IMG/VR virus record: IMGVR_UViG_3300021387_000109
Location: 12,008 to 76,007 of that record
DNA length: 64,000 nt
Reading direction: 5' to 3' (one strand)
Source: a virus
Taxonomy: Duplodnaviria; Caudoviricetes
A program made the translations under genes and the position numbers. The notes below the pieces were generated by a model that was given only the letters and a program-made list of their open reading frames with translations, was not told the origin of the DNA and did not search any database. Shown here piece by piece: positions 23,243 to 49,302 of this stretch (position 1 is the first letter of the stretch; the number at the start of each line of letters is the position of its first letter).

Positions 23243-23305
23243 TATTTATTAGTGTTCGGTGGTAGAGTTTTGCTCCTATTGGCTACTGTCGAACACTAAT
23301 AAATA
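23243..23305 (+). ncRNA. 23 bp hairpin with 17 nt loop containing CTCCTA (sRNA or RNase III site)
   Basis: TATTTATTAGTGTTCGGTGGTAG pairs with CTACTGTCGAACACTAATAAATA; three G-U pairs favour a plus-strand RNA. Confidence 0.55.
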
Positions 23306-23323
23306 ACTATTTTGGAGATAGTC

Positions 23324-23584
23324 ATGTCTAGATCCTTTAGATCTATACCTGTTGCCAAATGGCACAGGCATCATAATAAAAATACGCTACTGCGTAAGAT
23401 AATTCGAGCCAAAGATAGAATGAGATTAATCAAGGCAATTAAGGAAGAAAATCTAGACTCCTATATTCCTGCAACTCTTTTAGATGTAGGAGAGCGCTTT
23501 GATGATCCAATTTTACGTTCGCCAAGAAGTTTAGAAATTTGGTGTACAGAATTTAAAGATTTGGCAATCCTTTGCCGCAAATAG
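23324..23584 (+). CDS. Basic hypothetical protein (MSRSF-type)
   Basis: GGAG SD before ATG 23324. Confidence 0.7.
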   Translation: MSRSFRSIPVAKWHRHHNKNTLLRKIIRAKDRMRLIKAIKEENLDSYIPATLLDVGERFDDPILRSPRSLEIWCTEFKDLAILCRK

Positions 23585-23593
23585 GAGATAGTC

Positions 23594-23776
23594 ATGGATA
23601 TTCCTGTCTACCCATCAAAAGAAGCAGAAGAACTTGCTCGTGAATATGAAGAGCAAGAATTTGCCATTCTCGTAGTTAAGGGTCATCTGACCCGAGATGA
23701 ATTCAAAACCCTCACTGGAAAGTCCTTTGAGGATTATTTAAAGGAAATCGAGGAGATTGACGATGATCCTGTGTAA
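23594..23776 (+). CDS. Hypothetical protein (60 aa)
   Basis: AGGAG SD. Confidence 0.75.
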   Translation: MDIPVYPSKEAEELAREYEEQEFAILVVKGHLTRDEFKTLTGKSFEDYLKEIEEIDDDPV

Positions 23777-24104
23777 TAGCTTTTCAATCAACATGCTGCC
23801 TAAATTCATTGGGGCATGTGATATTCATATTGAATCCATTAGCAAGGAAGGAGCAATGAGTTTAACTCATGCTGCTCAGATTAATGGAAAACTAAAGTCC
23901 ATTATTGGGCATCCAGACATTGCAAAGATTGTCCAGAATGAACTTCAACTTGATATGGATCTCTTTAATCGAGAGACTTTCAAATGGACTGAAAAGACTG
24001 AGAACCTTTTAGTAGCTCAGTATATGGGTGAGAGACTTCCTGAAGGAACCAGAACTCTTCCTACTGGTTCAATTATCATTTACTATCTGGTGATGCGAAA
24101 ATGA
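23763..24104 (+). CDS. AcrIII-1 / DUF1874 (STIV B116, YddF-like) ring nuclease homolog
   Basis: ILCNSFSINML, SIIGHPDIAKIV (GH motif), NRE, LLVAQYMGERLPEG..TLP; AGGAG SD before ATG 23763. Confidence 0.8.
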   Translation: MILCNSFSINMLPKFIGACDIHIESISKEGAMSLTHAAQINGKLKSIIGHPDIAKIVQNELQLDMDLFNRETFKWTEKTENLLVAQYMGERLPEGTRTLPTGSIIIYYLVMRK

Positions 24105-24406
24105 TTGATTTAAGAATTTCATCCTATTCCCGAGTAGTTCAGTTCCTGAAGAAGAGAGGTTTTGAGTTTAATACCATTACCTTTCCTATGAAAGATTGCA
24201 TGAACATTGGGAGATATAAGCAACAGTTCTCTCTTTGCTTGACTTACAGTGTTGAAGGAATTCAACATGTATATATCAACATTAAATGGAAATCTCAACA
24301 TGGCCCAATCATAGTTGATAGAGTCATTCCTGTTGCTTTAAGGAGAGGTATGACTCTCAAAGAGATCTGTTTACGTGCTCTATTTAATCTCATGGTGAAT
24401 GAATGA
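24101..24406 (+). CDS. Hypothetical protein (101 aa)
   Basis: ATGA overlap coupling with neighbours. Confidence 0.65.
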   Translation: MIDLRISSYSRVVQFLKKRGFEFNTITFPMKDCMNIGRYKQQFSLCLTYSVEGIQHVYINIKWKSQHGPIIVDRVIPVALRRGMTLKEICLRALFNLMVNE

Positions 24407-24717
24407 CAGAAAGAAAATTCTTTCAAGTTTCCTTTGGAAATAAGAAAATTATCATCTATTCCAAAGTGATCGGAGAAGGGTATGAAGCAATATTTGAGCA
24501 TGAAGGAATACTCTGTTTTGCTTCTGTTATTAATCTTTCAGATCATGTACTCTATAAGGAAGGAAATATAGAGTGTATGATCTTTCCAATTGATCCCAAC
24601 ACTCATGAAATAGATTTTGGAACTGAACTATACATTAATAGAACAGATTCCAAAGATATGCTTTGGTTTATTAAACAATGTATTGACGACTTTACGGAGG
24701 AATATCATGCGTCTTGA
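24403..24717 (+). CDS. Hypothetical protein (104 aa)
   Basis: ATGA overlap coupling. Confidence 0.7.
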   Translation: MTERKFFQVSFGNKKIIIYSKVIGEGYEAIFEHEGILCFASVINLSDHVLYKEGNIECMIFPIDPNTHEIDFGTELYINRTDSKDMLWFIKQCIDDFTEEYHAS

Positions 24718-24901
24718 CATTCAGACATCAGATGAAACCAATGTTCATATTGACATTGATACTGATGAACTTAAGTTGCTTCTTGAACATAAGGAATGGC
24801 TTATTGCCAATAAAGAAAAAGCAGCTGAGTTCAGTATGAACCAGATTGCTTTGCTCAGAAGTCTGTTTGAAGTTTTGAGTGCCGAAAAGTCTTCTAAGTA
24901 A
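24707..24901 (+). CDS. Hypothetical protein (64 aa)
   Basis: GGAGG SD before ATG 24707 (start corrected). Confidence 0.7.
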   Translation: MRLDIQTSDETNVHIDIDTDELKLLLEHKEWLIANKEKAAEFSMNQIALLRSLFEVLSAEKSSK

Positions 24902-24929
24902 GCATAAAACCCCTCATCATTAGAGGGGT

Positions 24930-25010
24930 TATTTATTAGCATCCAGATAGACTTTGCTTCGTTTGATGTTCCTTCTATCCTTGTTCGTTTTATCTGGGTG
25001 CTAATAAATA
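24930..25010 (+). ncRNA. 20 bp hairpin with 41 nt pyrimidine-rich loop (sRNA or RNase III site)
   Basis: TATTTATTAGCATCCAGATA pairs with TATCTGGGTGCTAATAAATA; same outer arms and context as 23243-23305. Confidence 0.55.
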
Positions 25011-25029
25011 ATCACAAAAGGAGATTGTT

Positions 25030-25347
25030 ATGATTAAAGAACTCATTTCTAGTTTATCTTATAGAGAACATTCTCCCTTTAAGGAGAATGAATTTGGATA
25101 TGGTTTTTATTGCCATTTCAAACTGTTCTCTCATCCTTTCTATGCTTCTATTAGAGAGCATGATAATGGAGAGATAGTCTCATTCATTCATGATGAGGCT
25201 ACAGGGGATATTCTTTATAAGGACTATCCTGAAACACTCTCTAAGGAATCTCTTGAAGAAACAATCATTCTCTGGTTGAACCAAGAGATTAGTATCAACA
25301 ATGACACAGAAGATGATTACTTCTGCGAGGAGGAAATAAATGTGTGA
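25030..25347 (+). CDS. Hypothetical protein (105 aa)
   Basis: AAAGGAG SD. Confidence 0.75.
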   Translation: MIKELISSLSYREHSPFKENEFGYGFYCHFKLFSHPFYASIREHDNGEIVSFIHDEATGDILYKDYPETLSKESLEETIILWLNQEISINNDTEDDYFCEEEINV

Positions 25348-25624
25348 ACATTATGTTATTGAACTTGTGGGTCTCAATTATCGAGAACCCAAGTATTTCA
25401 CTAATGTGAAAGAGGTTGCTAAGTATCTTCAGATTACTACTAGTTCAGTGTATCACTATCTGAACACAGGAGTTGCCAATAACTGTGGATATAAGTTCCG
25501 TACAGTCTTTGGCAAGAAGGCAAAGATTACTCGCATCTCTGCCATTTATAACTTCCTCTATTGGGAGACTACAGGATGGAGAAAATCTATCAAAAATTGG
25601 ATGAGGCGTACAACCTGCATCTAG
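25340..25624 (+). CDS. Small helix-turn-helix protein
   Basis: FTNVKEVAKYLQITTSSVYHYLN HTH pattern; GAGGAGG SD. Confidence 0.6.
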   Translation: MCEHYVIELVGLNYREPKYFTNVKEVAKYLQITTSSVYHYLNTGVANNCGYKFRTVFGKKAKITRISAIYNFLYWETTGWRKSIKNWMRRTTCI

Positions 25625-25797
25625 ATGTAGATAGTCTAATCATTAAGACATTAGACAAAATGTCCTCAATTGAGGATACGGAAGATATTTATAGAGGACT
25701 AAATACTGTTATTTGGTCCTTAACCAATTTGGAGAGAATCTGTAATGCTCACCTTGACTCCAAGCAAGACAAAGGAAGCACTGATCAAGTGCTTTAA
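25576..25797 (+). CDS. Hypothetical protein (73 aa)
   Basis: GGAG SD before ATG 25576. Confidence 0.6.
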   Translation: MEKIYQKLDEAYNLHLDVDSLIIKTLDKMSSIEDTEDIYRGLNTVIWSLTNLERICNAHLDSKQDKGSTDQVL

Positions 25798-26770
25798 AGC
25801 AAAACTCGTTCCCTTTCTCCAGAGTTCACCTGGAATGGGAAAGAGTAGTCTCATTAAGGAAATTGCCAAGGAATGGAATCTTGAACTAATTGATGTTCGA
25901 CTTTCCACTATGGAACCCTGTGATTTAAACGGCTTACCAACATTTGATATGGATGGTAAAGCTACATTCCATCCTTATTCCATGTATCCTCTTGAAGGCA
26001 TGACACCTCCTGAAGGTAAAGATGGTTGGCTGTTGTTCCTTGATGAATTTAATGCTGCACCTAGAGCAGTTCAGGCAGCAGCCTATAGAGTGGTGTTGGA
26101 TCATGAAATTGGACAATACAAACTTCATCCAAACTGTCTTGTTGCCTGTGCTGGTAATTTGTCTACTGATAATGCCATCACTACTCGATTGAGTACAGCA
26201 ATGCTTTCAAGACTTATCCATATTCATATGGAAGTTAGTCTTAAGGATTGGATGGAGGCAGTAGCAATTCCTCAGGCATATGATGAGAGAGTTATTGCTT
26301 TCTTGAATATGTATCCTGACAAATTGATGCAGTTTGATCCAGAAAGAGAAGATGAAACATTCTCTTGTCCACGAACATGGGAATTCACTAATAGACTAAT
26401 TAAGCCTATTAAGAATCTCACTGAGACTGATGCAATTCTTCTATCTGGAACAATTACACCAGATATTGCTACTGAATTTGTTCAGTTTACCAAGGTCTAT
26501 AAGCACCTTGTTACTTTGAAGGAAATTGTTGATAAGGATGGAGATTGTCCTGTTCCTGATGATATGGCTACAAGATATGCCATCTTGGTTCATCTTATGA
26601 TGAATGTTAAGAAAGATGATTTTGAACCAGTATTGAAATATGTGGATAAGTTCGATTCTTCAATGAAGATTGTTTTCGTCAGAAACATCATCAAGAGAAT
26701 GCCTGAATTTAGAACACATCCAGCAATGGTTCAGATGATCATTAGGGAAGGCAAGTATCTCCTTGGATAG
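25745..26770 (+). CDS. MoxR-like AAA+ ATPase (N4 gp24-like)
   Basis: SSPGMGKS Walker A, LLFLDEF Walker B, AGN, SRLIH, FSCPRTW. Confidence 0.92.
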   Translation: MLTLTPSKTKEALIKCFKAKLVPFLQSSPGMGKSSLIKEIAKEWNLELIDVRLSTMEPCDLNGLPTFDMDGKATFHPYSMYPLEGMTPPEGKDGWLLFLDEFNAAPRAVQAAAYRVVLDHEIGQYKLHPNCLVACAGNLSTDNAITTRLSTAMLSRLIHIHMEVSLKDWMEAVAIPQAYDERVIAFLNMYPDKLMQFDPEREDETFSCPRTWEFTNRLIKPIKNLTETDAILLSGTITPDIATEFVQFTKVYKHLVTLKEIVDKDGDCPVPDDMATRYAILVHLMMNVKKDDFEPVLKYVDKFDSSMKIVFVRNIIKRMPEFRTHPAMVQMIIREGKYLLG

Positions 26771-26772
26771 TT

Positions 26773-27894
26773 ATGGATGACAAGCAAATACTTGATAGGA
26801 TCAAGGCATCTGCATTCGTGTACAGCAATACAGCATTCCTAGGAATCATTTCCTGTATGCTGACTCTTGACTGGAAGGAAAATCATCCTGAAGTTCAGGA
26901 AGACTTTAATGCCGGTATCTATTATAAGAAGAAGTTATTGCTTCTTAAGAAGGACTGGTTTTTAAGTCTTCCCAAGAAACAACAGACAGGTGTTTTCCTG
27001 CATGAATTGTGGCATGCTGCAAGACTTCATGATGTAAGACTTGGTGATAGAGATCCTTTAATTTGGAATATTGCTGGTGACTTCAGAATCAATAATGACT
27101 TGCTCAAGGATGGTTTTGAATTACCTCCTGATTGCTTGCAGAATTCCAAATATACAAGGGACATATCTGAAGAAGAAATCTATGATGAGATCTATCAGGC
27201 ATCTCCCCGGATAAAGGCAAAGTATGTCAATCAGTTAAATGCCATTGGTCATGACGTTCAGCAGGTTAATGAAGAAGAAAAACTTGCTCAAGTCATGATG
27301 GTTCAGCAGGCTATTCAGCAAATGAAAGTCACAGGTGCTGGAAAGGTTCCTGGTGACATTGAGAAAGTTCTATCCAATTACCTTAAGCCAAAACTTCCTT
27401 GGTGGAGACTTTTAAGAAATTACTTGACAGATTCCTTGGATATTGAGTGGTCTTGGAAAAGACCCAATAAACGATTCAAGGATATTTATCTGCCCAGCAT
27501 TACCAAGGAAGAGGGTAAACTTACACATGTAGTTCTGTTCTTAGATACCTCTGGATCAATTTCAGAGAAAACTCTTGAAAGGTTTAATTCAGAGGTACGA
27601 TTTATTCAGGAAGTTCTTTGTCCTGAAAAGTTAACTGTCATTCAGTTTGACTATACAATTCAAAAAGTTCAGGAATGGAAAGAAGGACAACATTACCGGA
27701 ACATCAAGATGTACGGTGGTGGTGGTACTTCACTCCATGAAGTTCATGATTGGATTGTCAAGAACATGCCTACGTGTGCAATCATCTTCAGTGATCTCTG
27801 GTGTGAACCAATGGAACAAGTAAAGGTTCCTGTCATCTGGGTCATTGAAGGTGATCATGAAGAACCCTCATTTGGTAAGAGTTTTAGAATATGA
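26773..27894 (+). CDS. Metallopeptidase-like plus VWA domain protein (N4 gp25-like)
   Basis: HELWH, WNIAGDFRIN, LDTSGSI MIDAS, GGGGTS, IIFSD. Confidence 0.9.
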   Translation: MDDKQILDRIKASAFVYSNTAFLGIISCMLTLDWKENHPEVQEDFNAGIYYKKKLLLLKKDWFLSLPKKQQTGVFLHELWHAARLHDVRLGDRDPLIWNIAGDFRINNDLLKDGFELPPDCLQNSKYTRDISEEEIYDEIYQASPRIKAKYVNQLNAIGHDVQQVNEEEKLAQVMMVQQAIQQMKVTGAGKVPGDIEKVLSNYLKPKLPWWRLLRNYLTDSLDIEWSWKRPNKRFKDIYLPSITKEEGKLTHVVLFLDTSGSISEKTLERFNSEVRFIQEVLCPEKLTVIQFDYTIQKVQEWKEGQHYRNIKMYGGGGTSLHEVHDWIVKNMPTCAIIFSDLWCEPMEQVKVPVIWVIEGDHEEPSFGKSFRI

Positions 27895-28706
27895 ATAACA
27901 CACCTAAAGTAGAAATTATTGCTGATTCTATTAATAGAAGTTGCCCAAGGTTGACAACATTCAGGTTAACCTATTGGAGACCAATCCTTGCGGAGATGAA
28001 TACTCATAGAGTGTTCTCTCGCAATGCCAGTTCCTCAAGAGCAATGAGGTTTGAAAATCTTGTTGATCAGGTAGTGGATGATCCTTGGATGCCTAAGCAT
28101 TGGGCTTCTGAGCAGAAGGGAATGGTTGCAGGTGAAGAATTTGATGAAAAGACTAAGAATTTCATTGAGAAGCAGATTGCAGAATTAGCCAGATATACGG
28201 CTGAAACTCTAATGCATATCAATGACAGTGTGATTAATCAGACTGGCAAGGGAATTCATAAGGAATTCATCAATCGTTACCTTGAACCATTCCGTCCAGT
28301 AACTCAACTGATTACTGCAACGGATTGGACTAATTTCTTTAAGTTGCGTACTGCTTCTGATGCACAGCCTGAGATTAGAGATGTTGCTCTTGCAATGCAG
28401 GATCTATATCTCTCTCATACTCCTGAAGTAATCAAGGACAATGGCTGGCATCTTCCCTTCATTACTGAAGAAGAGAAAACAAAGTATGACATCAATATCT
28501 TGAAGAAGATTTCTGTTGCCAGGTGTGCAAGAGTGTCATATGACTCAACTAAGTTCGATCTGGACAAGGATATTGCCCTACATGACAGATTGCTTAAGAA
28601 TGGGCATTTAAGCCCATTTGAGCATATTGCCACTCCAATGTTCACGAAGGTATTGGAAAGGAATTTCCGAGGTTGGAACCAGTATAGAACAATGCTTGCT
28701 GGTTAA
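27891..28706 (+). CDS. thyX: Flavin-dependent thymidylate synthase
   Basis: EMNTHRVFSRNASSSRA, NFFKLR, AQPEI, SVARCARVSY, HLSPFEH. Confidence 0.9.
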   Translation: MNNTPKVEIIADSINRSCPRLTTFRLTYWRPILAEMNTHRVFSRNASSSRAMRFENLVDQVVDDPWMPKHWASEQKGMVAGEEFDEKTKNFIEKQIAELARYTAETLMHINDSVINQTGKGIHKEFINRYLEPFRPVTQLITATDWTNFFKLRTASDAQPEIRDVALAMQDLYLSHTPEVIKDNGWHLPFITEEEKTKYDINILKKISVARCARVSYDSTKFDLDKDIALHDRLLKNGHLSPFEHIATPMFTKVLERNFRGWNQYRTMLAG

Positions 28707-28712
28707 TTGATT

Positions 28713-28745
28713 AAATCCCCTGTCTAATAAACAGGGGATTTTCTT
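28713..28745 (+). terminator. Rho-independent terminator
   Basis: AAATCCCCTGT/ACAGGGGATTT 11 bp stem. Confidence 0.75.
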
Positions 28746-28749
28746 ATTT

Positions 28750-29040
28750 ATGCTACAAGATCCTACCAGACTTTTTTACAATGATTTCAAATATGCATAT
28801 GAACATTGGTTGGATGCTGTAGCATCTGAACCAGAAGGAGAATTTAGTGAAGAAGCCCTTAATTGGGAGGCTTTACTGGTTAAACGCTGTGTAGCAGCAG
28901 TAAAGAAACATTTGATTCCTCCTTATCTTGAAGTCAAAAAGACTACAAGAGGAGTAGAATCTCTTACTCTCATTGCTCCTGACAATAAGAACTATTGGGA
29001 ATACATCAGAAATTGGTTAGGAGTTATTGACCATATTTAA
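28750..29040 (+). CDS. Hypothetical protein (96 aa)
   Basis: ORF track. Confidence 0.65.
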   Translation: MLQDPTRLFYNDFKYAYEHWLDAVASEPEGEFSEEALNWEALLVKRCVAAVKKHLIPPYLEVKKTTRGVESLTLIAPDNKNYWEYIRNWLGVIDHI

Positions 29041-29041
29041 T

Positions 29042-29069
29042 GGGCCTATAGCTCAATTGGTTAGAGCAC
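29042..29069 (+). pseudogene. Orphan 5' fragment of a tRNA gene (acceptor 5' strand plus D arm)
   Basis: GGGCCTA-TA-GCTC-AATTGGTTA-GAGC-A then AT-rich sequence; no matching 3' half found. Confidence 0.75.
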
Positions 29070-29126
29070 TTGATTAAATAAACTGATTTAATTATAATTT
29101 AATTTATTTAAAAGGGTGCTTTAACT

Positions 29127-29567
29127 ATGGAAATACAATTAGAATATCCATACAACAAAGATTGGCGTAAAGGATACTTAGTAAAAAATTCTGAAAACCG
29201 AGATACAGTAATTTTGTTCAACTCATCTTCAGATAGATCTTCTACCCAATATGCAAGATATCTAATGGCTGTCTCTTTGCAAAGATATTTAACAGATGAT
29301 GAAACTGTAGATCATATAGATGGTAATAAAAATAATAATGATTTGAAAAATCTACAGATTTTATCTAAAGGAGATAACATTAGAAAATCTTCTAAAAAAC
29401 CAGATTATATTTGTATATGTCCTATTTGTCATAAAACATTTACAGTTCCTAGAAAAAAAGCTTCTGGCATTGTGGCAAAGAAGAAAATACTTTCAGGAAC
29501 TAAATGTTGTTCTAGACAATGTGGATATAAACAAGTATCTAAAACATTAATGGGCCGTGAGCCATAG
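29127..29567 (+). CDS. HNH homing endonuclease with C-terminal zinc finger
   Basis: VDHIDGNKNNNDLKNLQILS..DN HNH motif; CPIC and CCSRQC; stop codon lies inside the following tRNA. Confidence 0.9.
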   Translation: MEIQLEYPYNKDWRKGYLVKNSENRDTVILFNSSSDRSSTQYARYLMAVSLQRYLTDDETVDHIDGNKNNNDLKNLQILSKGDNIRKSSKKPDYICICPICHKTFTVPRKKASGIVAKKKILSGTKCCSRQCGYKQVSKTLMGREP

Positions 29568-29628
29568 TAGTAGAGGCAGCGTTCTCATAAAGCGCAGACA
29601 GTAGGTGCAAGTCCTACACGGCCTACCA
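29552..29628 (+). tRNA. tRNA-CAT (Met or Ile2), non-canonical D arm
   Basis: GGGCCGT/ACGGCCT acceptor, GCGTT-CTCATAA-AGCGC, GTAGG-TGCAAGT-CCTAC, encoded CCA; G8 and no G18G19. Confidence 0.8.
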
Positions 29629-29634
29629 AATTTT

Positions 29635-29952
29635 ATGAAGAAGCGTTTTAACATTACTGCTACTATCCTTGATAAGCATGGAAAGGTTATTAGTGTAGGA
29701 CACAATTCCTATGTTAAGACTCATCCCCTACAGGCTCAATTAGCCCATAAAGTAGGCAAGGATAAGAAAGTATTCTTACATGCTGAAGTAGCAGCAATCA
29801 TTAAAGCAGGTAAAAGGATCAAGAAAGCACATACAATCTACATTACTAGGTACAATGCCAAAGGTGATCCTGTAAATGCATGTCCTTGCGCTATTTGCAG
29901 TTCTTTGATCCATGCTGTAAGAATTCCTAATGTGGTGTATACAAATGATTAA
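29635..29952 (+). CDS. Zinc-dependent cytidine/dCMP deaminase family protein
   Basis: SVGHN, LHAEVAAI, CPCAIC (HxE...PCxxC). Confidence 0.85.
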   Translation: MKKRFNITATILDKHGKVISVGHNSYVKTHPLQAQLAHKVGKDKKVFLHAEVAAIIKAGKRIKKAHTIYITRYNAKGDPVNACPCAICSSLIHAVRIPNVVYTND

Positions 29953-30955
29953 ATATCCTCACATTGAAAATATTTCTACTATTTCAAGTACACAACTAGT
30001 TCAACTAAACAATAAGACTTATTGTGTAACTGAGAAGATTCATGGTGCAAATTGTCAGTTTGTACATACCAAGAAGTATGCTGATGCTTGGGGAATCTTC
30101 TCTAGGAATAACCAGATTACTAATGAAAGTTTCTACAATGCTGTAGAAGTTTTAAAAGCAGAGATTATGAATCCTGCTTGGGCTGTTGAAGATTATCTTA
30201 GTAAATCTGGTTATCCTAGTGATAAGTATTATTATTTTGGAGAAATCTTTGGTGGTTGTTATGACCATCCAGAAGTACCCAAGGCAGTTGGAGCCAAGAG
30301 AGTTCAGAGAGGTGTTTATTATTCTCCTAAAAATCATTGGAAGTGCTTTGATATTGGCATTGAAAAAGATGGAGAGTTTCACTTCATTCCTCAGAAGATT
30401 TTATTTGCTGCTTATAAAGAAACCAACTTTCCTGTAGTACCTCTTCTTGGTGTTTACAGTACTCTTGAAGATGCTCTGAAGCATCCAAATAATGGTTTAT
30501 CAATTGTCCATAAGGACTATGGACTTCCTCCTATTGATAACAATATCATGGAGGGTGTTGTAATCAAACTTTGGGGTGAAGACACACCTTTCAATGATGA
30601 ACGAGTAGTCTTTAAGAATAAGAATGAAATTTTCAGCGAAAAAGCTCATAGTCAAAAGCAGCGAGACATTAAAGTACTATCTGAAAATTTTAGTGCTGTA
30701 TGTCAGATTGCTGATACATATTTGACTTCTAACAGAATTATCAATGCAATGTCTCATATTGGTGAATGTACCTTTAAGGACATTGGTTCAATCCTGAAGG
30801 AAGTTATTACTGATATTCATGATGAAATGAGTAAGGATTGTCCTGAATTCATTGCCTTGGAAAAAAAGGAACAGTCAACAGTCTGTAAACTTCTTTCTAC
30901 AAAAGCTGCTAAAATGATCAAAGAAGAAATCCTTAAACAGAGTACTGGCGCTTGA
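29945..30955 (+). CDS. RNA ligase 2 (T4 Rnl2-like)
   Basis: YPHIEN, TEKIHGAN (motif I), FSRN, FGEIFGG, FDI, MEGVVIK, FKNKNE.FSEK. Confidence 0.9.
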   Translation: MIKYPHIENISTISSTQLVQLNNKTYCVTEKIHGANCQFVHTKKYADAWGIFSRNNQITNESFYNAVEVLKAEIMNPAWAVEDYLSKSGYPSDKYYYFGEIFGGCYDHPEVPKAVGAKRVQRGVYYSPKNHWKCFDIGIEKDGEFHFIPQKILFAAYKETNFPVVPLLGVYSTLEDALKHPNNGLSIVHKDYGLPPIDNNIMEGVVIKLWGEDTPFNDERVVFKNKNEIFSEKAHSQKQRDIKVLSENFSAVCQIADTYLTSNRIINAMSHIGECTFKDIGSILKEVITDIHDEMSKDCPEFIALEKKEQSTVCKLLSTKAAKMIKEEILKQSTGA

Positions 30956-30990
30956 CTAGAAATCCTAGGAAATTAGTCAAGTGAAAAATA

Positions 30991-31054
30991 AGAATCGCTT
31001 TGGTAGTCTTCCTGGATCAGGGATGAGGAGGTTCAATTCCTCCCGATTCTTCCA
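30991..31054 (+). ncRNA. 64 nt tRNA-like RNA lacking a D stem (GAT at the anticodon position)
   Basis: AGAATCG/CGATTCT acceptor, T73 and CCA; GGAGG-TTCAATT-CCTCC T arm; 11 nt unpaired D region with TGGTAG; TTCC-TGGATCA-GGGA arm lacking U33 and purine 37. Confidence 0.65.
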
Positions 31055-31072
31055 CTTAATTCAAGGAGCATT

Positions 31073-31393
31073 ATGTCCAGATCATATAAAAAACATCCAG
31101 TTCATCCTATAACAGTTAGTGATTCAGAAAAGAATGATAAGAAGATCTGGCATTCATGCTTTAGATCCAAATCCAAACAATACATCAAAAATAAGTTGGT
31201 CTTTAATGATGATTGGGATTTCCCAATCCATTTTAGAAATGTATCCAATGTTTGGTGCTTTGATAAAGATGGTAAATGCTGGTTTTATCCTCTTACTTGG
31301 AAACGTGGTAAATCCATGTTTAAAAAGGATATAAAGACCTTGAGAAAATACCTGTATACTCAAAAATACCTTTATCAATTGTTTGGAAAGTAA
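31073..31393 (+). CDS. Basic hypothetical protein (MSRSY-type)
   Basis: AAGGAG SD; MSRSYKK.P...K...W..FR....NVWCFDKDGK. Confidence 0.75.
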   Translation: MSRSYKKHPVHPITVSDSEKNDKKIWHSCFRSKSKQYIKNKLVFNDDWDFPIHFRNVSNVWCFDKDGKCWFYPLTWKRGKSMFKKDIKTLRKYLYTQKYLYQLFGK

Positions 31394-31448
31394 AGACTTT
31401 GAGCCAAGACAGTTCTTTGGCGTAAAAGCACATAATAATTAACTATCT

Positions 31449-31523
31449 GGGTCTATAATACAAAGGTTAGTATAGCGGACTTTTAATCCGTCTATCTGAG
31501 TTCGAGTCTCAGTGGACCCACCA
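31449..31523 (+). tRNA. tRNA-Lys(TTT)
   Basis: GGGTCTA/TGGACCC acceptor, GCGGA-CTTTTAA-TCCGT, CTGAG-TTCGAGT-CTCAG, ACCA. Confidence 0.92.
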
Positions 31524-31530
31524 CAGAATT

Positions 31531-31711
31531 CATCATTATAAGCACGAAGAAGAATCAGGTATAGCGTACTTGATTTAGAGTTAACATGGAGGGTTAGTTG
31601 AGTACTCAACAACTAATCTATGTCTTGTTTAAAGAGCGAAAGCAATAGATTGCATGCAAATCTGTTGTATAAGTCACTTGTAAAACTCTCTGAATCCGGC
31701 TTATAATGATG
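31531..31711 (+). ncRNA. Candidate multibranch ncRNA (about 180 nt) between tRNA-Lys and tRNA-fMet
   Basis: Perfect 13 bp closing stem CATCATTATAAGC/GCTTATAATGATG plus at least five internal hairpins with G-U pairs. Confidence 0.65.
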
Positions 31712-31719
31712 TCACTAAT

Positions 31720-31793
31720 CGCGGAATGGTGTAATAGATGCACACAAGGCTCATAACCTTGAAGACTAGGTGCAATTCCTTGTTCCGCAACCA
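31720..31793 (+). tRNA. tRNA-CAT, initiator-like (C1:A72 mismatch)
   Basis: C-GCGGAA/TTCCGC-A acceptor, CAAGG-CTCATAA-CCTTG, ACCA; only two G-C pairs at the base of the anticodon stem; one T-stem mismatch. Confidence 0.85.
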
Positions 31794-31800
31794 ATTAACC

Positions 31801-31902
31801 GAGAAAAGAGGAAAATTTTTTTGATTAACCCCTAGAGTAGTTGGCTATTTGTTACAGAAACTATTCAATGGTATCGAAGAATTTTGTGCAACCTCTTTTC
31901 TC
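31801..31902 (+). ncRNA. Candidate rod-shaped ncRNA (about 100 nt) between tRNA-fMet and tRNA-Asn
   Basis: GAGAAAAGAGG/CCTCTTTTCTC 11 bp closing stem, then AAAATTTTTT/GAAGAATTTT and GAGTAGTT/AACTATTC helices. Confidence 0.55.
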
Positions 31903-31907
31903 TTTAT

Positions 31908-31983
<76 letters not shown>

Positions 31984-31984
<1 letters not shown>

Positions 31985-32290
31985 TTTAAAATGGTGCTTT
32001 GATTTCTTAATTCAATCCCGTAGAACATAGGCAATTTAAAAGGCACCATTTTAAATAGGACAAGATACGTGAGCAACTCATGTTGCTTCAAAGGTTTAAG
32101 CGTGTAACAAGAGATCTCTGTCAAGAAGTCTCTAGCGGGCAAAAGAAGTACGCCTCGACTTACCTCCTCCCGTATGATGAAAGGATATCCGTAGATATTC
32201 CTGCTCTTAAACCTTGGGAATCACACTAATGAGAGGCAAAGTTTGTAGAATACTCATATCGACATTAGTATGAAACCCTAAACCCTAATT
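31984..32290 (+). ncRNA. Structured spacer between tRNA-Asn and tRNA-Arg: 17 bp hairpin (31984-32056) plus a multibranch domain
   Basis: ATTTAAAATGGTGC/GCACCATTTTAAAT; AAGGTTTAAG/CTTAAACCTT (32091-32215); loop CCTCGACTTACCTCCTCC. Confidence 0.55.
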
Positions 32291-32295
32291 ATTAA

Positions 32296-32372
32296 CTCTC
32301 CATAGCATAACTGGAAAATGCCACAGACTTCTAATCTGTAGACTGTAGGTTCGAGTCCTACTGGAGAGACCA
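32296..32372 (+). tRNA. tRNA-Arg(TCT)
   Basis: CTCTCCA/TGGAGAG acceptor, ACAGA-CTTCTAA-TCTGT, GTAGG-TTCGAGT-CCTAC, ACCA. Confidence 0.93.
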
Positions 32373-32376
32373 GAAT

Positions 32377-32441
32377 TTGAACCAAGGGAAGTTATCTTTC
32401 ACTCATGACTTTTATTGCCTCCTATGCTTCTCTTGGTTCAA
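32377..32441 (+). ncRNA. 15 bp hairpin whose 35 nt loop is antisense to an SD-plus-ATG region
   Basis: TTGAACCAAGGGAAG/CTTCTCTTGGTTCAA; loop reverse complement CATAGGAGGCAATAAAAGTCATGAGTGAAAGATAA. Confidence 0.65.
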
Positions 32442-32455
32442 TCCGATTTTCAACT

Positions 32456-32540
32456 GCCTGAGTGTCGTAACTAGTAGCCGAAGCAGACTTAAAATCTGCC
32501 GCCGAAAGGCGTGTGGGTGCAAATCCCACCTCAGGTACCA
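32456..32540 (+). tRNA. tRNA-Leu(TAA)
   Basis: GCCTGAG/CTCAGGT acceptor, GCAGA-CTTAAAA-TCTGC, long variable arm CGCC-GAAA-GGCG, ACCA. Confidence 0.92.
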
Positions 32541-32553
32541 TTTTTCAATTCCT

Positions 32554-32922
32554 ATGCCTTCTACAAATTATCCAAATACTAGTTATGCAAGTCCAAATGT
32601 TAGTTATGTAAGGCCAGCTATTACAACTGGTATGCCCATAACAACTGCTTTTAAAGCTGTTGAAGATAATTTGGATAAATTAAATGATGCTGTATTTAAT
32701 TCCATTCAAGTTGATTCAGATTGGAAAATATCTGCATATGCTCATGCATGGACAACTAGTTACTTTGGTAAAACTAGAATTATTCTAAAAAATATTGGAA
32801 TAGAAATTAATTTAGATGTAGATGAAGATGCTTTAGAGAAATTAATTAAAGATCTTCAAGTTCATTTAAACTACATCAGAGATACCAGATCCAAGTGGTA
32901 TCTAGGTGAGCTATCTAAATAG
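32554..32922 (+). CDS. Hypothetical protein (start uncertain)
   Basis: 3' part of track ORF 32377-32922 after removing the tRNA overlap; no clear SD. Confidence 0.5.
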   Translation: MPSTNYPNTSYASPNVSYVRPAITTGMPITTAFKAVEDNLDKLNDAVFNSIQVDSDWKISAYAHAWTTSYFGKTRIILKNIGIEINLDVDEDALEKLIKDLQVHLNYIRDTRSKWYLGELSK

Positions 32923-32930
32923 AGGTATCT

Positions 32931-32990
32931 ATGACTGAAACAATGGTATTTTATATTTGTTTAACTGTTGGTGCAGTAGTAGTTCTATAA
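32931..32990 (+). CDS. 19-aa hydrophobic micropeptide MTETMVFYICLTVGAVVVL
   Basis: AGAGGT SD; exactly fills the gap between two genes. Confidence 0.45.
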   Translation: MTETMVFYICLTVGAVVVL

Positions 32991-32998
32991 GGATTTCT

Positions 32999-33358
32999 AT
33001 GACTAAGACTATTGAACTTACACAAGAAGAATTTGATCTTCTAGTCTATCTTTTAGATAAAGGTATTGATTGGGCAGAAACTAATCAAGATAAGATAGCA
33101 GGTATTGCTCTTAGCACTAAACTTGAAGCTCAGTCAAATGATTGGAAGACACGTTTTGAACTTGAGTATAGACAATTAAAGAAACGTACTCTAAAACTTA
33201 ATGATGTGCTTACCAAATGGGATAGTAAAGGAATACCTCCTGGTATTACTAAATGTCCCAAGAGTCTCTATGAGTGGCAGTATCAGAGTATGCTTCAATA
33301 CTTAGGTGCTCTAGAAGCAAGAGCAACAATTTTAGGAATTAATTTACATAAGGATTAA
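32999..33358 (+). CDS. Conserved phage protein (DWKTRF..EY.QL..R..KL family)
   Basis: SNDWKTRFELEYRQLKKRTLKL...CPKSL...QYQSM.QYL..LEARA; AAGGA SD before ATG 32999. Confidence 0.7.
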   Translation: MTKTIELTQEEFDLLVYLLDKGIDWAETNQDKIAGIALSTKLEAQSNDWKTRFELEYRQLKKRTLKLNDVLTKWDSKGIPPGITKCPKSLYEWQYQSMLQYLGALEARATILGINLHKD

Positions 33359-33360
33359 AC

Positions 33361-33633
33361 ATGAAGAGAATTTTTAATGAACTGGTTCTTGACAGACATT
33401 CTGGAACTGTAGAAATCAGTTCTTATGTTTCTGATGAAGATGCAAGAGAACGTAGAGGAGAAGTTCGTATTGAACAGGAAATTAATGGACATCATATCTC
33501 CTTGGATCTTCTTCCTGAAGAAGCAAATGCTTTATCTGCTGCTATCTTTCAAGCCACTTATCATATTGATAGGGAATTGACATATAAGTATGAGCAAGAA
33601 GTATCTACTCCGGTTAAGCAGGACGGAGCTTGA
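33361..33633 (+). CDS. Hypothetical protein (90 aa)
   Basis: AAGGA SD. Confidence 0.7.
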   Translation: MKRIFNELVLDRHSGTVEISSYVSDEDARERRGEVRIEQEINGHHISLDLLPEEANALSAAIFQATYHIDRELTYKYEQEVSTPVKQDGA

Positions 33634-33823
33634 ACTTATTCAAGAAGTCCTAAGAACTAATGCAGATTACATAAAGATACTTTATGGTTTATATCTGCGC
33701 TCAGGATGCTTAGAGACAGAAAAAGAAACTGTTGATAAGTCTCTTACCATCTGCAACAAAATAGATAAAGTATTGGATGTTGCAAATGACAAAGCACAAC
33801 CAAAATCTACAAAAGATTCTTGA
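33590..33823 (+). CDS. Hypothetical protein (77 aa)
   Basis: ORF track, packed. Confidence 0.55.
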   Translation: MSKKYLLRLSRTELELIQEVLRTNADYIKILYGLYLRSGCLETEKETVDKSLTICNKIDKVLDVANDKAQPKSTKDS

Positions 33824-34016
33824 ACCATTCAAACTTTATCAGTTTGATGTAAAAGAATTACTTGACTTCTTTATCTTTCTTGAAGCCCATATGGATTACA
33901 TAGAAAGTGCAATCTATACATCTAGAACAAGTGAAGCAGCAGAAACTGCTAGAACAATTGAAAAGATTGCTAAAGATGGTATAGATTTATGTGAAGAATT
34001 AATGAGGAGTAGATAA
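33786..34016 (+). CDS. Hypothetical protein
   Basis: ORF track, packed; start set to ATG 33786. Confidence 0.55.
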   Translation: MTKHNQNLQKILEPFKLYQFDVKELLDFFIFLEAHMDYIESAIYTSRTSEAAETARTIEKIAKDGIDLCEELMRSR

Positions 34017-34336
34017 TGAAGGAAGATGATTTTAGATACCTCCTTGAAAAGAAGATATGTGAAGTACTAGAACCCCTCAAGTTTAGTATTGAGAAGTGTG
34101 TTCCAGGAGAATTTGAAGCACATTTTATTGGTCCTAATAGAACCATGCGATTGACTGTGAATACAGTTAATCATGTTACATTACTCTGGTATGAAGATGC
34201 TGGAGAAATTAGGATCAAATATCCAGCAAATGAAACTGGTAGATATGAACAAAAAATGTTTTTACAGGATATTTGTAAACAACAGAGTTTCGATAACAAT
34301 GACTATATCTCCTGTATTTTTAGAGGGGGAGATTAA
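34016..34336 (+). CDS. Hypothetical protein (106 aa)
   Basis: GAGGAG SD, TAATG coupling. Confidence 0.7.
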   Translation: MKEDDFRYLLEKKICEVLEPLKFSIEKCVPGEFEAHFIGPNRTMRLTVNTVNHVTLLWYEDAGEIRIKYPANETGRYEQKMFLQDICKQQSFDNNDYISCIFRGGD

Positions 34337-34338
34337 TA

Positions 34339-34719
34339 ATGTCTGAATGGACTTTATACCTAATTATTATTGTTCATAACCTAGATTCTATTCTAGGTAT
34401 TCTGCTTTGTTTATTCCTCTGTGTAGTAACTGTATGTGCTGCATTTGGAATTACTGGATATGTCATGTGTGATGAATATGAATCATCCAGATTTAAAAGC
34501 AAAATGCAATTCTTTAAAAAGATTTTAATGCATCCTCTTACAGTAGGATTTTTAATTCTCTCTCTTCTCTCTTCAATTCTGGTTCCTTCTTACAAAGAGA
34601 TTGTTGCTATTTACATTATTCCTAAGGTAATTAATGCACAGATGACCCAGAAACTTCCAGAGACAATCAATCTCTTCCTAAACAAATATATTAAGGAAAT
34701 GTCCAATGAGAAGCACTAA
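34339..34719 (+). CDS. Membrane protein with two hydrophobic segments
   Basis: ILGILLCLFLCVVTVCAAFGITG and LTVGFLILSLLSSILVPS; .IYIIPK motif. Confidence 0.7.
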   Translation: MSEWTLYLIIIVHNLDSILGILLCLFLCVVTVCAAFGITGYVMCDEYESSRFKSKMQFFKKILMHPLTVGFLILSLLSSILVPSYKEIVAIYIIPKVINAQMTQKLPETINLFLNKYIKEMSNEKH

Positions 34720-34909: not shown

Positions 34910-34917
34910 GGAAATAT

Positions 34918-46758: not shown

Positions 46759-47479
46759 TTCAAATGATCAACTGGTACTAATTTGTGGTTACTCTGCCAA
46801 TGGTAAGTCTGCTTCTTTAAGGAACATCAGGAACCAGGAGAAATGGTACTATTGTTCCTGTGAAGCAGGCAAGAAGCTCCCCTTCAAGAATAAGTTTAAT
46901 TTCTTGAAGGTATCTGATCCATATCAGGTATATGAGGCTTTTGATCATGGCAAGGATGATCCAAACTGTGAAGGCATTGTGATTGATTCATTATCCTTCC
47001 TAATGGATATGTTTGAGGTAATGTATGTCAAGAATGCCTCAAATACCATGAAAGCATGGGGGGAGTATGGAGACTTCTTCAGAACCCTCATGCAGGAGAA
47101 GGTAACTACCTTTAACAAGCCTGTAATCTTCATTGCTCATGTCAAAGATGTTCTTGATGAAAAGTCAATGGAGATTAAGACTTCCGTTCCTATTAAAGGT
47201 TCTCTGGCTGGACAAGGTGTTGAAGCTTTCTTCAGTACTGTTGTAGCAGCTAAGAAGATTCCTATTAAGGAACTTGAGGGATACAAGTCTGATCTTCTTC
47301 ACATTGATGATGAAGAAAAGGAACTTGGATTTAAGTATGTGTTTCAGACGAGAATCACTGGTAAAACAACTGGTGAGAGAATTAGATCTCCGATGGGTCT
47401 GTTCTCCAAAAATGAAACCTTTATGGACAATGATGCACAGATCCTGTTGGATCATCTAAATGAATTTTATAAGGAATAA
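46751..47479 (+). CDS. AAA ATPase (N4 gp44-like, Sak4-like)
   Basis: GYSANGKSASL, IVIDSLSFLMDMFE, IFIAH, RIRSPMG. Confidence 0.85.
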   Translation: MPDSNDQLVLICGYSANGKSASLRNIRNQEKWYYCSCEAGKKLPFKNKFNFLKVSDPYQVYEAFDHGKDDPNCEGIVIDSLSFLMDMFEVMYVKNASNTMKAWGEYGDFFRTLMQEKVTTFNKPVIFIAHVKDVLDEKSMEIKTSVPIKGSLAGQGVEAFFSTVVAAKKIPIKELEGYKSDLLHIDDEEKELGFKYVFQTRITGKTTGERIRSPMGLFSKNETFMDNDAQILLDHLNEFYKE

Positions 47480-47484
47480 GTAAA

Positions 47485-48183
47485 ATGAGCATTTTTGCTA
47501 ACATGACAACCAATGGTCTAGAGGAACAGAAGGATTCTCTCGGTGGTTACTCTCCTCTTGAGACCAATATCTATGAAGCCACAATCAAGGCACTCTATGC
47601 ACAGACTGCCAAGAGTGGTGCTATGTCTCTCAACCTCATTGCTGACATTGATGGTCGTGAGTATCGTGAGACTGTTTATATCACCTCTAAGGATGGTGTG
47701 AACTATTATGTGAATAAGGCAGGTAAGAAGGCTCCTCTTCCTGGTTTCATTACCATGAATGATCTCTGCCTGTGTGCAGTTGGTCGTGAACTCTCTGAAC
47801 TTGAAACTGAGACCAAGGTCATCAAGCTTTATAATCGTGAAGCTAAGACCGAAATGCCTACTGAAGTTCCAATGGTTGTTGATCTTATTGGAACCAAGGT
47901 TGCTCTTGGCATCTTCAAAGAAAAGGTCAACAAGCAGGTTCTTGAAGGCAATACCTATGTGGATTCTGATGAAACTCGTGAACAGAATGTGATCAACAAG
48001 GTGTTCCATCTTGAGACTCACAAGACTGTCAATGAGGCCAAGAATGACCTTGAAGCAGAGTTCTGGGACAAGTGGCTTGCCAAGAATCAGGGCAAGGTGA
48101 TTGACCGGACAAAGAAAGGTGTAAAGAGCAATGCTCCTAAGGCATCTGCTCCTGCTCCCAAGAAGAGTCTGTTCGCTAAGTAG
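47485..48183 (+). CDS. Single-stranded DNA-binding protein (N4 gp45-like)
   Basis: SGAMSL, YRETVYITS, LPGFI..NDL, N.I.KVFH, C-terminal KKSLF. Confidence 0.85.
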   Translation: MSIFANMTTNGLEEQKDSLGGYSPLETNIYEATIKALYAQTAKSGAMSLNLIADIDGREYRETVYITSKDGVNYYVNKAGKKAPLPGFITMNDLCLCAVGRELSELETETKVIKLYNREAKTEMPTEVPMVVDLIGTKVALGIFKEKVNKQVLEGNTYVDSDETREQNVINKVFHLETHKTVNEAKNDLEAEFWDKWLAKNQGKVIDRTKKGVKSNAPKASAPAPKKSLFAK

Positions 48184-48184
48184 T

Positions 48185-48601
48185 ATGAAGTACTGCCAAT
48201 ATGAATTGGTAGTACCTGCATCTGTAAAGGTTGGGAGAAAGAAATATTCTCTCAACCTTAATATTTATCGAAACTTGAATCCATACATCTTGAACCAGAT
48301 GAAAAGAAACTTTACAGATCTGGTAAAAGATCAACTGGATCAACTCCCTAAATTCAAAACTTTAAAAATCACTTATGTCTTTTACCATAAAGGCAAGAGG
48401 TTGATTGATGTATCGAACTTTTGTTCGATAGTAGATAAGTTTTTTAGCGATGCTTTAGTAGAAGCTAAGATTATCAAGGATGACAACTATACGATTATCC
48501 CGCAAGTAGTCTATGCCTTCGGTACTCCTACTACAGAAGAATCCCATTTTAGAATTAAATTAGAAGGTTTAACCTATGAAAATCAATCTGACACAGCCTG
48601 A
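48185..48601 (+). CDS. RusA-like Holliday junction resolvase
   Basis: LNLNIYRN, DVSN..SIVDKFFSDALV...I.DDN. Confidence 0.8.
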   Translation: MKYCQYELVVPASVKVGRKKYSLNLNIYRNLNPYILNQMKRNFTDLVKDQLDQLPKFKTLKITYVFYHKGKRLIDVSNFCSIVDKFFSDALVEAKIIKDDNYTIIPQVVYAFGTPTTEESHFRIKLEGLTYENQSDTA

Positions 48602-48845
48602 AATTGAACAGGCCATCAAGGACTATCTTAAGAATTACATCTCTATGCCTGGATGTGACTTCCGTATTGAAATGAGTGCTACCAGAGGTGCTGCTGGATT
48701 CATTGCAGAAGTTACTGTCTGCAAGGCAGAAGAGGTTCATACTCTTACTCCAAAGCAACTTGAAAAACCTGTTCCTGAAGTAAATACTGAAACAGGTGAA
48801 GTTGAACAGCCTAAGAGACAGTCTCTCTTCTCAGGTTTAAAGTAA
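48576..48845 (+). CDS. Conserved N4-like small protein
   Basis: MKINLTQPEIEQAIKDY...SLFSGL; AAGG SD. Confidence 0.7.
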   Translation: MKINLTQPEIEQAIKDYLKNYISMPGCDFRIEMSATRGAAGFIAEVTVCKAEEVHTLTPKQLEKPVPEVNTETGEVEQPKRQSLFSGLK

Positions 48846-49079
48846 ATGGACAACTCTGATAAAGTAGTCTTAATTGATGCCTCTAATGGAATAATTATGG
48901 AATATAAAGGTATCAAAGGTTCCTTATTTATTGATCCAGAGGCTGAAATTCTGCGTGGACAACTATTGAATACTAGTAAAATCCTTCTTATTTATGAAGG
49001 TAACACAATTGAAAGCATTAAGAAAACTTTCAAGAAATGTGTTAAAGCATACTTAGAAATGCTAACTGTGAAAGATTAG
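48846..49079 (+). CDS. HicB-like antitoxin N-terminal domain, orphan
   Basis: MEYKG..GS...D.E..ILRG.LL.....I.YEG.TI......F...V..YLE; no DNA-binding C-terminus and no hicA nearby. Confidence 0.7.
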   Translation: MDNSDKVVLIDASNGIIMEYKGIKGSLFIDPEAEILRGQLLNTSKILLIYEGNTIESIKKTFKKCVKAYLEMLTVKD

Positions 49080-49092
49080 TGTACAATAGGAA

Positions 49093-49302
49093 TCGAAGCG
49101 AAGAGTGGTAATATTGTAGTCATACTGACATGACAATCCTAGAAAGTTAAATCGGACCCCATCCACCAACACCACCATCCGATTTAACTTTCAGATGAAT
49201 CCTTGGGGTTTAACTCCTTAAATTCGTTTCATGCATATCTCCTTTACCCGAGGGTTCATCTGAAAGTTTATTTTAGACCTGCTTTTAAGCAGGTCTTTTT
49301 TT
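49093..49302 (+). ncRNA. Candidate small RNA (about 210 nt) with two long overlapping hairpins and own terminator
   Basis: 15 bp stem 49142-49192 with C-rich loop; 22 bp stem 49186-49268 with loop antisense to AAAGGAG...ATG; TACAAT at 49082; terminator 49275-49302. Confidence 0.7.
49275..49302 (+). terminator. Rho-independent terminator
   Basis: AGACCTGC/GCAGGTCT stem plus T-run. Confidence 0.85.

Follow-up and report, generated by a model that had tools for sequence, protein, structure and literature searches.

Long coding-strand RNA hairpins at operon junctions and tRNA spacers of an uncultured N4-like phage

Long stem-loops were analysed in the early and middle region of an uncultured N4-like phage (Schitoviridae) of ruminant-gut origin, represented by the IMG/VR virus record IMGVR_UViG_3300021387_000109. 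The record comprises 76,007 bp with direct terminal repeats; the stretch under study (the window, 64,000 nt) corresponds to bases 12008–76007, or 84% of the record, and coordinates refer to the window unless stated otherwise. Five intergenic hairpins stand out, namely E1 (23242–23306), E2 (24929–25011), 31982–32058, E4 (32377–32441) and E5 (49186–49268). Their helices are RNA structures of the coding strand (plus in all cases), are kept by selection and occupy three kinds of site: the interval between a terminator and the Shine-Dalgarno (SD) sequence of the next operon (E1 and E2), spacers between transfer RNA (tRNA) genes (E4 and 31982–32058) and a 3' untranslated unit preceding a terminator (E5). 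The explanation tentatively preferred, with confidence somewhat short of even, is a composite one, in which the hairpins would act in processing or stability, either as RNase III-type elements or as RNAs released by tRNA processing, while their loops would damp translation generically.

Identification and folding of the hairpins

Stems were searched exhaustively (at least 15 pairs, G-U pairs allowed, at most one mismatch, loops of 15–45 nt), using 20 dinucleotide shuffles as a control. This enumeration, proposed as a check in an initial annotation of the sequence, revealed an excess on the plus strand, with 10 stems of at least 15 pairs (2.6 in shuffles) and three of at least 18 pairs (0.1 in shuffles). 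E1 is an additional long-stem case, which was missed in this count through a filter of at most three G-U pairs. It has a stem of 24–25 bp and a 17-nt loop (AGUUUUGCUCCUAUUGG; fold z −6.5). E2 combines a stem of 21–26 bp with a loop of 37–41 nt containing UUCCUUC and AUCCUUG (z −4.8), and hairpin 31982–32058, previously unlisted, has 18 bp and a 39-nt loop (z −4.7). The stem of E4 comprises 15–16 bp, closed by a loop of 33–35 nt with GCCUCCUA (z −4.4), and that of E5 22–23 bp, the 39 nt of its loop including ACUCCUUA and AUCUCCUUUA (z −6.7). In folding predictions, the plus strand was more stable than the minus strand for every one of the five.

Four of the five elements listed in the initial annotation thus stood as real plus-strand hairpins (16–26 bp, z −4.4 to −6.7). 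The remaining one, a plus-strand ACCUCCU element at 32137–32166, was dismissed as a significant structure: it lies inside a possible 49-codon open reading frame (ORF; 32080–32229) and folds no better than shuffles (z −0.95). A search of the whole window with the Rfam 15 covariance models (gathering score) matched five tRNAs and nothing else, so that none of the hairpins corresponds to a curated family of that release.

Selection on the plus-strand helix

Close relatives were obtained via neighbouring proteins, giving two or three distinct sequences per element, a number at which formal shuffle controls on covariation are without power. The sole relative of E4 (L019) is nearly identical and hence uninformative. 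In E1, E2, E5 and their relatives, approximately 13 stem positions depart from Watson-Crick pairing, all of them as G-U on the plus strand and none as A-C; the claim that G-U pairs favour one and the same strand is therefore borne out, the plus strand being favoured in every element. Compared with its relatives, E1 displays three stem changes (C-G to U-G, G-C to G-U and G-U to A-U), all of which keep pairing. The stem of E2 is kept in seven relatives, and its variants differ by wobble changes only. The relatives of E5 (variant B) show two fully compensatory changes from G-C to A-U pairs and one from U-G to U-A. When the stems of the relatives were aligned, 100% of the cells paired, compared with 26–67% after the partner had been slid by 1–3 columns. 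Wobbles that are exclusively G-U, together with changes that maintain pairing, are the pattern made by selection on a plus-strand RNA helix, and we hold with high confidence that such RNA helices are under selection here.

The same strand asymmetry bears on an alternative at the DNA level, in which the repeats would extrude as cruciforms, with single-stranded loops or AT-rich arms that provide promoters for the T7-like RNA polymerase II (RNAP II), aided by a single-strand binding cofactor of the gp2 type. Position and family habit make this reading attractive for E1 and E2, which are situated exactly between a terminator and an operon start and whose conserved outer stem is AT-rich; among N4-type polymerases, transcription starts from hairpin or single-stranded promoters (PMC4496689, PMC9163698), and a gp2 homologue is found in relatives. 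However, a template-strand DNA hairpin would carry A-C mismatches wherever the non-template plus strand has a G-U wobble, and the substitutions in relatives add further wobbles of this kind. Moreover, E4 and 31982–32058 lie within the tRNA precursor and E5 precedes a terminator, whereas read-through suffices at other terminators of the region, which have a start codon at once after them. The known hairpin promoters of N4 and LUZ7, finally, have stems of 4–7 bp and loops of 3–4 nt. A promoter function of the DNA is thus given a low probability.

A DNA search of public phage collections returned no close relative, and in IMG/VR scans with single proteins two of the three proteins had none. The scan with the third protein and a metagenome scan yielded one distant relative each (G001 and L006, respectively), the intergenic DNA of which does not align to that of the window. 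An IMG/VR pattern scan for the outer stem of E1 and E2 gave no match; the corresponding scan for the E5 stem gave a single match inside a coding region, which was discarded as chance. Within 22800–33000, the elements are covered by DNA contigs from gut runs of sheep and goat.

Site types and putative processing

E1 and E2 have a common 11-bp outer stem (TTATTTATTAG/CTAATAAATAA). Each begins in the U-tract of an intrinsic terminator identified by terminator scan and folding (T1, 23224–23243, and T2, 24908–24930, both on the plus strand), with the U-tract forming the 5' arm of the hairpin, and its 3' end lies 8–12 nt ahead of the SD of the gene that opens the next block (8 nt for E1 and gene 23324–23584, 12 nt for E2 and gene 25030–25347). 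The earlier notion that the stems are unrelated is consequently wrong for this pair, which agrees in outer stem, preceding terminator and following SD. Both elements are located within mRNA leaders. Terminator 28713–28741 lies only 8 nt upstream of the next ATG; read-through of terminators is therefore normal in this region, and E1 and E2 will thus be transcribed and need not hold promoters. No promoter-like (sigma-70-like) site was detected at either of them, and such sites are depleted in the scanned region (29 compared with 55 expected).

Adjacent to E1, a micro-ORF of 18 codons (MIVYPDWMGDDYSENSFP; 23158–23214) with a strong SD is kept in the relatives L010 and L014. It is probably a real micro-protein gene, because it has been retained there with many synonymous changes and a single M/F replacement.

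The second kind of site comprises the spacers between tRNA genes. E4 and 31982–32058 fill such spacers and begin 0–5 nt after a CCA: the latter starts at the CCA of tRNA-Asn, and E4, between tRNA-Arg and tRNA-Leu, starts 5 nt past the CCA. The spacer between tRNA-Met and tRNA-Asn is closed by a stem, too. Given its position inside a tRNA spacer, E4 must be excised by tRNA processing.

E5 represents the third kind. Within a 237-nt spacer, hairpin A (49144–49190, plus strand, 13–16 bp, loop not conserved) overlaps with its 3' arm the 5' arm of hairpin B, which is E5, and the unit is closed by a canonical intrinsic terminator (terminator C, 49275–49302, plus strand), which is recognisable in the sequence and kept in relatives. 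A conserved TACAAT follows the stop codon upstream of the unit, and the gene after terminator C (49317–49580) lacks an SD. Relatives carry an identical unit irrespective of whether their downstream gene resembles that of the window at 99% or at only 66%; this indicates mosaic exchange, with a recombination junction at the terminator, and the lower value applies, for instance, to positions 6001–6264 of L028. In the distant relative G001, three long hairpins abut one another, one of them with TTATTTATTCAG as its outer stem.

None of the long hairpins conforms to the definition of an intrinsic terminator, that is a GC-rich hairpin directly followed by a U-tract. A terminator scan of 16000–35900, a range that ends before E5, called T1, T2 and other sites and did not call the long hairpins. 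Of the hairpins, only E5 has a U-rich run after it (UUUAUUUUA), and a separate terminator follows there.

These positions are compatible with a model in which the hairpins would punctuate the polycistronic middle transcripts and the tRNA precursor. Near-perfect helices of 22–26 bp are substrates of bacterial RNase III, and cleavage by this enzyme, which the initial annotation had named as an outcome that would undermine its hypothesis, is the default expectation for helices of this length; we regard putative cleavage of the hairpins as an evenly balanced prospect. The spacer hairpins, in turn, would have to be cut out when RNase P and 3' maturation act on the tRNAs on either side, judging from established knowledge of tRNA maturation. 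Provided that both activities operate in this manner, transcript units would be separated, and discrete, end-protected stem-loop RNAs would be left. Release by tRNA processing (E4 and 31982–32058) or beside terminators (E1, E2 and E5), as suggested earlier, follows from the positions of the elements.

Anti-SD words in the loops

The null model for anti-SD words was based on the five objectively chosen hairpins, including 31982–32058, whose loop is devoid of such a motif; together, the loops amount to 165 nt. They contain 10 occurrences of CCTCC, CTCCT, TCCTT or TCTCC, corresponding to six distinct sites. Composition-preserving shuffles of the same loops contain 1.6 (P about 3e-4), and the rate in other plus-strand intergenic sequence (3976 nt) predicts 0.79. 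Mirror-image words occur twice in the loops and sense SD words not at all. In an unbiased test of whether some k-mer is shared by as many loops as the leading one, TCCT and CTCCT were the top-ranked 4-mer and 5-mer, respectively.

The loop of E1 is identical in relatives (17/17 positions), and about 10 of the 54 positions in the adjacent micro-ORF vary. In seven relatives of E2, the 5' half of the loop is replaced and the motif-bearing 3' half (UUCUnUCCUUGUUC) is kept. Similarly, variant B of E5 retains the 3' half of the loop, while its replaced 5' half again holds an anti-SD word (ACCUCCUA), such that two anti-SD sites persist despite the exchange of half the loop. Conservation of the loop motifs, as judged from these alignments, lends moderate and independent support to an anti-SD role.

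By a weaker line of reasoning, the pyrimidine-rich loops would expose one or two copies of CUCCU(U), resembling the tail of the 16S ribosomal RNA (rRNA), in this lineage. The exposed copies would pair with the GGAG core of SDs, making the loops generic dampers of translation or sponges for SDs, acting in cis or once released, rather than gene-specific guides. SD pairing by the loops is possible but doubtful, and if they act at all, they may do so as generic anti-SD elements.

Several observations weigh against the composite explanation. On the side of processing, only E1, E2 and E5 have the helix of at least 20 bp (about two turns) typical of RNase III substrates, whereas E4 and 31982–32058 are shorter than two helical turns; furthermore, all helices are uninterrupted except for G-U pairs and thus lack the internal loop or bulge and the small apical loop of T7-type sites. 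In the one RNA run, assessed at contig level, seven contigs fell into 22800–33000, five of them identical to this stretch and none extending over a hairpin, a result that is silent on expression and ends. On the side of the loops, the anti-SD word set was picked after the data had been seen, the unbiased k-mer test was not significant (P 0.75), and one of the five hairpins, 31982–32058, is without the motif. In L010, the E2 motif is predicted to be paired with a new CAAGGGG within the loop. In the distant relatives G001 and L006, the long hairpins are mostly devoid of anti-SD words, with no significant enrichment, and the syntenic non-coding regions of N4, LUZ7, St11Ph5, VBP47, R7L and Frozen likewise show no significant anti-SD excess. 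Finally, a sponge that binds all SDs would also strike the phage's own genes; the SDs of its early and middle genes are strong and of the AAGGAGAU type.

The main rival, which we consider somewhat unlikely, draws on several of these points. It views the hairpins as purely structural processing or insulator elements (RNase III sites, exonuclease barriers or tRNA folding insulators), with the anti-SD words being incidental to pyrimidine-rich, G-poor, unstructured loops. The missing motif in 31982–32058, the unbiased test and the base-paired motif of L010 all fit this idea, as does the presence of long hairpins at the same kinds of site, without consistent anti-SD words, in N4, St11Ph5, JWAlpha, LUZ7, G001 and L006. 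It is opposed by the enrichment above composition-preserving shuffles, the complete conservation of the E1 loop and the regained anti-SD word in the replaced half of the E5 loop. Overall, the comparison marks the long clamping hairpin as the family-wide trait, with the anti-SD loop established for the lineage of the window only and suggestive single cases in N4 and LUZ7.

Loop composition (68% pyrimidine and 12% G, compared with 52% and 17% in other intergenic sequence) could alternatively reflect platforms that bind either the 30S subunit or a protein such as ribosomal protein S1, and that would serve as standby sites, translational enhancers or operators for a phage RNA-binding protein. The conserved loop blocks, the placement of E1 and E2 just upstream of operon-first SDs and the absence of an SD from the genes following E5 and E4 are in line with such a role. 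Nevertheless, a terminator or a tRNA stands between E5 or E4 and the next gene, the loose preference of S1 leaves the specific CUCCU word unexplained, and no candidate RNA-binding protein was identified. We therefore consider platforms quite improbable.

Start-codon antisense and potential targets

According to the initial annotation, two loops are complete antisense copies of a gene start (SD, spacer, ATG, three codons and TAA, encoding MSER and MKRI), and each loop would be aimed at the translation start of a specific host or competitor gene. The copies are literally present: the minus strand reads AGGAGG-N11-ATG AGT GAA AGA TAA at E4 and AAGGAG-N6-ATG AAA CGA ATT TAA at E5, and an antisense SD-N-ATG arrangement in two loops compares with 0.14 expected. 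The relatives of E5 keep its anti-SD and anti-ATG block. However, the loops of E1 and E2 contain no antisense ATG, and the codons past the ATG of E5 change in relatives, where the frame extends from MKRI* to 16 codons. For these reasons, the significant and conserved feature is the complement of the SD, not a copied gene start. In addition, once a loop holds an SD complement, an ATG within 4–12 nt and an early stop are not improbable in AT-rich sequence.

To assess targets, each loop was paired with every one of the 65 translation starts on the plus strand, and the duplex energies were compared with those of shuffled loops. The mean energy over the 65 starts was below that of shuffled loops for E1, E2, E4 and E5 (P 0–0.05), whereas the best single phage target was never exceptional (P 0.17–0.37). 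The longest exact loop complements in the phage measured 8–11 nt. An 8-nt match of E1 at a gene start (23580; gene 23594) was discarded as a target, as it is not kept in L010. Exact searches with the loop complements of E4 (24 nt) and E5 (21 nt) found no match in 185,579 species genomes, a set that perhaps does not include the host. The loops contain conserved blocks, as would the seed of a trans-acting small RNA (sRNA), without a specific complementary target. Because only generic SD complementarity was found, they look like generic mimics of the 16S tail (CUCCUUA, CCUCCU) rather than guides. With only the CUCCU/UCCUU blocks kept and neither a phage nor a host target in sight, gene-specific guides against host defence or competitor genes are very unlikely; the alternative of generic SD sponges, also raised in the initial annotation, fits better with pairing that is expressed in the mean over all starts and not at a single target.

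The antisense gene starts also raise the question of whether the minus strand itself is functional, with ribosome-binding sites and mini-ORFs displayed in the hairpin loops of antisense transcripts. E4 and E5 do have a strong SD and an ATG on that strand, and SD-like words occur in E1 and E2. Yet the helices are weaker on the minus strand in all cases, all neighbouring genes and tRNAs have plus orientation, the peptides lack conservation, and E1 and E2 lack an ATG, which renders this possibility scarcely credible.

Genomic context

The runs holding the phage are sheep, goat and other animal gut metagenomes. Its G+C content is 37%, and its primase is at most about 61% identical to that of any cultured phage. 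The window contains an N4-type replication module, a virion RNA polymerase (vRNAP) of 4007 residues (51884–63907, minus strand) and a single-chain RNAP II (19636–21807, plus strand). The latter is one polypeptide of 723 residues that matches both the N4 gp15-type and gp16-type profiles, which correspond to two subunits in N4. All genes in 16400–51900, comprising early and middle genes and six tRNAs, are on the plus strand, and every element reported here lies in this interval.

Additional features were noted in its vicinity. In the spacer after the RNAP II terminator (21845–22017), the words GATTTCGCAG and CAGATTTCT occur in two copies each, upstream of gene 22018–22503. The product of 23763–24104 matches PF08960 (STIV_B116-like). 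A sequence at 29041–29068 (GGGCCTATAGCTCAATTGGTTAGAGCAC) resembles the 5' half of a tRNA, lacks a matching 3' half and lies just before gene 29127–29567. Contigs of relatives join this tRNA-like point to positions elsewhere (29068 to 29620 and 31494 to 29049), which suggests rearrangements at the tRNA-like sequence. Hairpin 29058–29127 was excluded from the family; its 5' arm is a remnant of the tRNA 5' half. Between the AAA_24 gene and the gene at the SSB position, the relatives L013 (7923–8184) and L028 (3923–4184) carry a structured-looking insert of 261 nt, possibly an intron or a small mobile element, at a site where the two genes of the window are separated by 5 nt (47479–47485).

Related hairpins in other N4-like phages

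In coliphage N4 (L020, NC_008720), a stretch of 1.5 kb (32112–33632 of that record) is unannotated in RefSeq. Four tRNAs, a tRNA-like remnant and three long hairpins that abut tRNAs are located there. The first hairpin (32702–32795, plus strand) has a stem of 24 bp with three G-U pairs, starts 2 nt after tRNA-Thr and contains CCUCC twice in its 44-nt loop; the others have stems of 26 bp (32933–33045) and 14 bp (33133–33216). An Rfam search of the N4 tRNA region returned tRNAs only, and the intergenic regions of N4 contain ordinary terminators and no hairpins of the E1/E2 type. A putative likeness between T7-type promoter cores and CACACTATAG, an arm of the N4 hairpin, was discarded. Stems of 20–23 bp with loops of 28–53 nt are present in non-coding stretches of St11Ph5, JWAlpha and LUZ7.

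The closest counterpart of E5 by position is the sRNA1–3 locus of LUZ7. Its orf69-orf70 spacer is syntenic with E5, lying between a gp47-like gene and the vRNAP-side end of the middle region, and is strongly structured (z −6.2), with a 13-bp hairpin carrying a CUUCCUGUCUCCUAG loop (UCUCCUA). Abundant small RNAs of less than 250 nt reportedly arise from this spacer late in infection, according to ONT-cappable-seq (PMC9163698). There is, however, no detectable sequence homology to E5, the LUZ7 stem measures 13 bp, and anti-SD enrichment is not significant there; moreover, the LUZ7 RNAs have been seen experimentally, whereas an E5 RNA is predicted.

A far-reaching and, in our view, unlikely interpretation is that the Schitoviridae possess a class of stem-loop RNAs, released by RNase III or tRNA processing, with large loops that imitate the 16S rRNA 3' tail, titrate SDs and retune translation globally at the switch from early to late expression. 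Such a class would be positionally conserved from the rumen phage to N4 (hairpin 32702–32795) and the late sRNA locus of LUZ7.

Little has been charted of the non-coding RNA of lytic phages, and transcription has a model system in the N4-like phages. Throughout the family, including the unannotated 1.5 kb of N4, tRNA spacers and operon junctions are clamped by long hairpins of sense orientation, the loops of which carry a conserved sequence like the 16S tail in one lineage. Should the loops bind SDs, they would constitute a simple and general viral way of tuning translation, an idea that is directly testable in N4, which infects E. coli K-12. If the hairpins are only processing sites, they would still explain tRNA maturation and operon uncoupling in these phages.

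Comparison with known systems

The inverted repeats that serve as N4-like hairpin promoters (early promoters of the vRNAP; middle promoters of LUZ7) occur in the same phage family, and the window has a set of its own at 16430–19070. They differ from the long hairpins in every respect, with stems of 4–7 bp, loops of 3–4 nt, a template-strand orientation and a conserved flanking motif. Within 16430–19080, at least six short hairpins (e.g. AGTCCTGTCGGACT) followed by TTAATTGA were found, each upstream of an early gene; they are likely the early promoters of the virion RNA polymerase of this phage. The promoter-early stem-loop (PeSL) cassettes of T4-type phages are similar in that they are conserved intergenic terminator/stem-loop cassettes bordering modules of small genes, whereas E1 and E2 lack a sigma-70-like promoter and the stem-loops of the window are not the terminators themselves.

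Closer parallels are provided by the RNase III sites of T7, which lie between genes of the early and late mRNAs and form irregular helices that have an internal loop and small apical loops. Like these, the hairpins are long intercistronic sense stem-loops, in a phage with a T7-like RNA polymerase, beside terminators and translation starts. In contrast, their helices are near-perfect (16–26 bp) with open loops of 17–41 nt, and they are candidate sites by sequence. The tRNA gene cluster of T4 gives rise to the stable RNAs 'species 1 and 2', of which species 1 is an RNase III substrate. Both cases involve structured non-tRNA RNAs that are co-transcribed in a phage tRNA cluster and would be released by tRNA processing; those of the window are single clamped hairpins that fill each spacer.

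For the loops, the counterparts are SD-blocking RNAs with C/U-rich loops, such as the hairpins of S. aureus RNAIII, RsaE/RoxS and the prophage RNA DicF, which have defined targets and short stems. Common to both are pyrimidine-rich loops complementary to the SD core on stable hairpins, whereas the hairpins of the window combine stems of RNase III length with very large loops for which no specific target emerged. By analogy, the elements would thus work most like T7-type RNase III sites and the stable RNAs of the T4 tRNA cluster, with loops that recall the SD-blocking sRNAs with C-rich loops.

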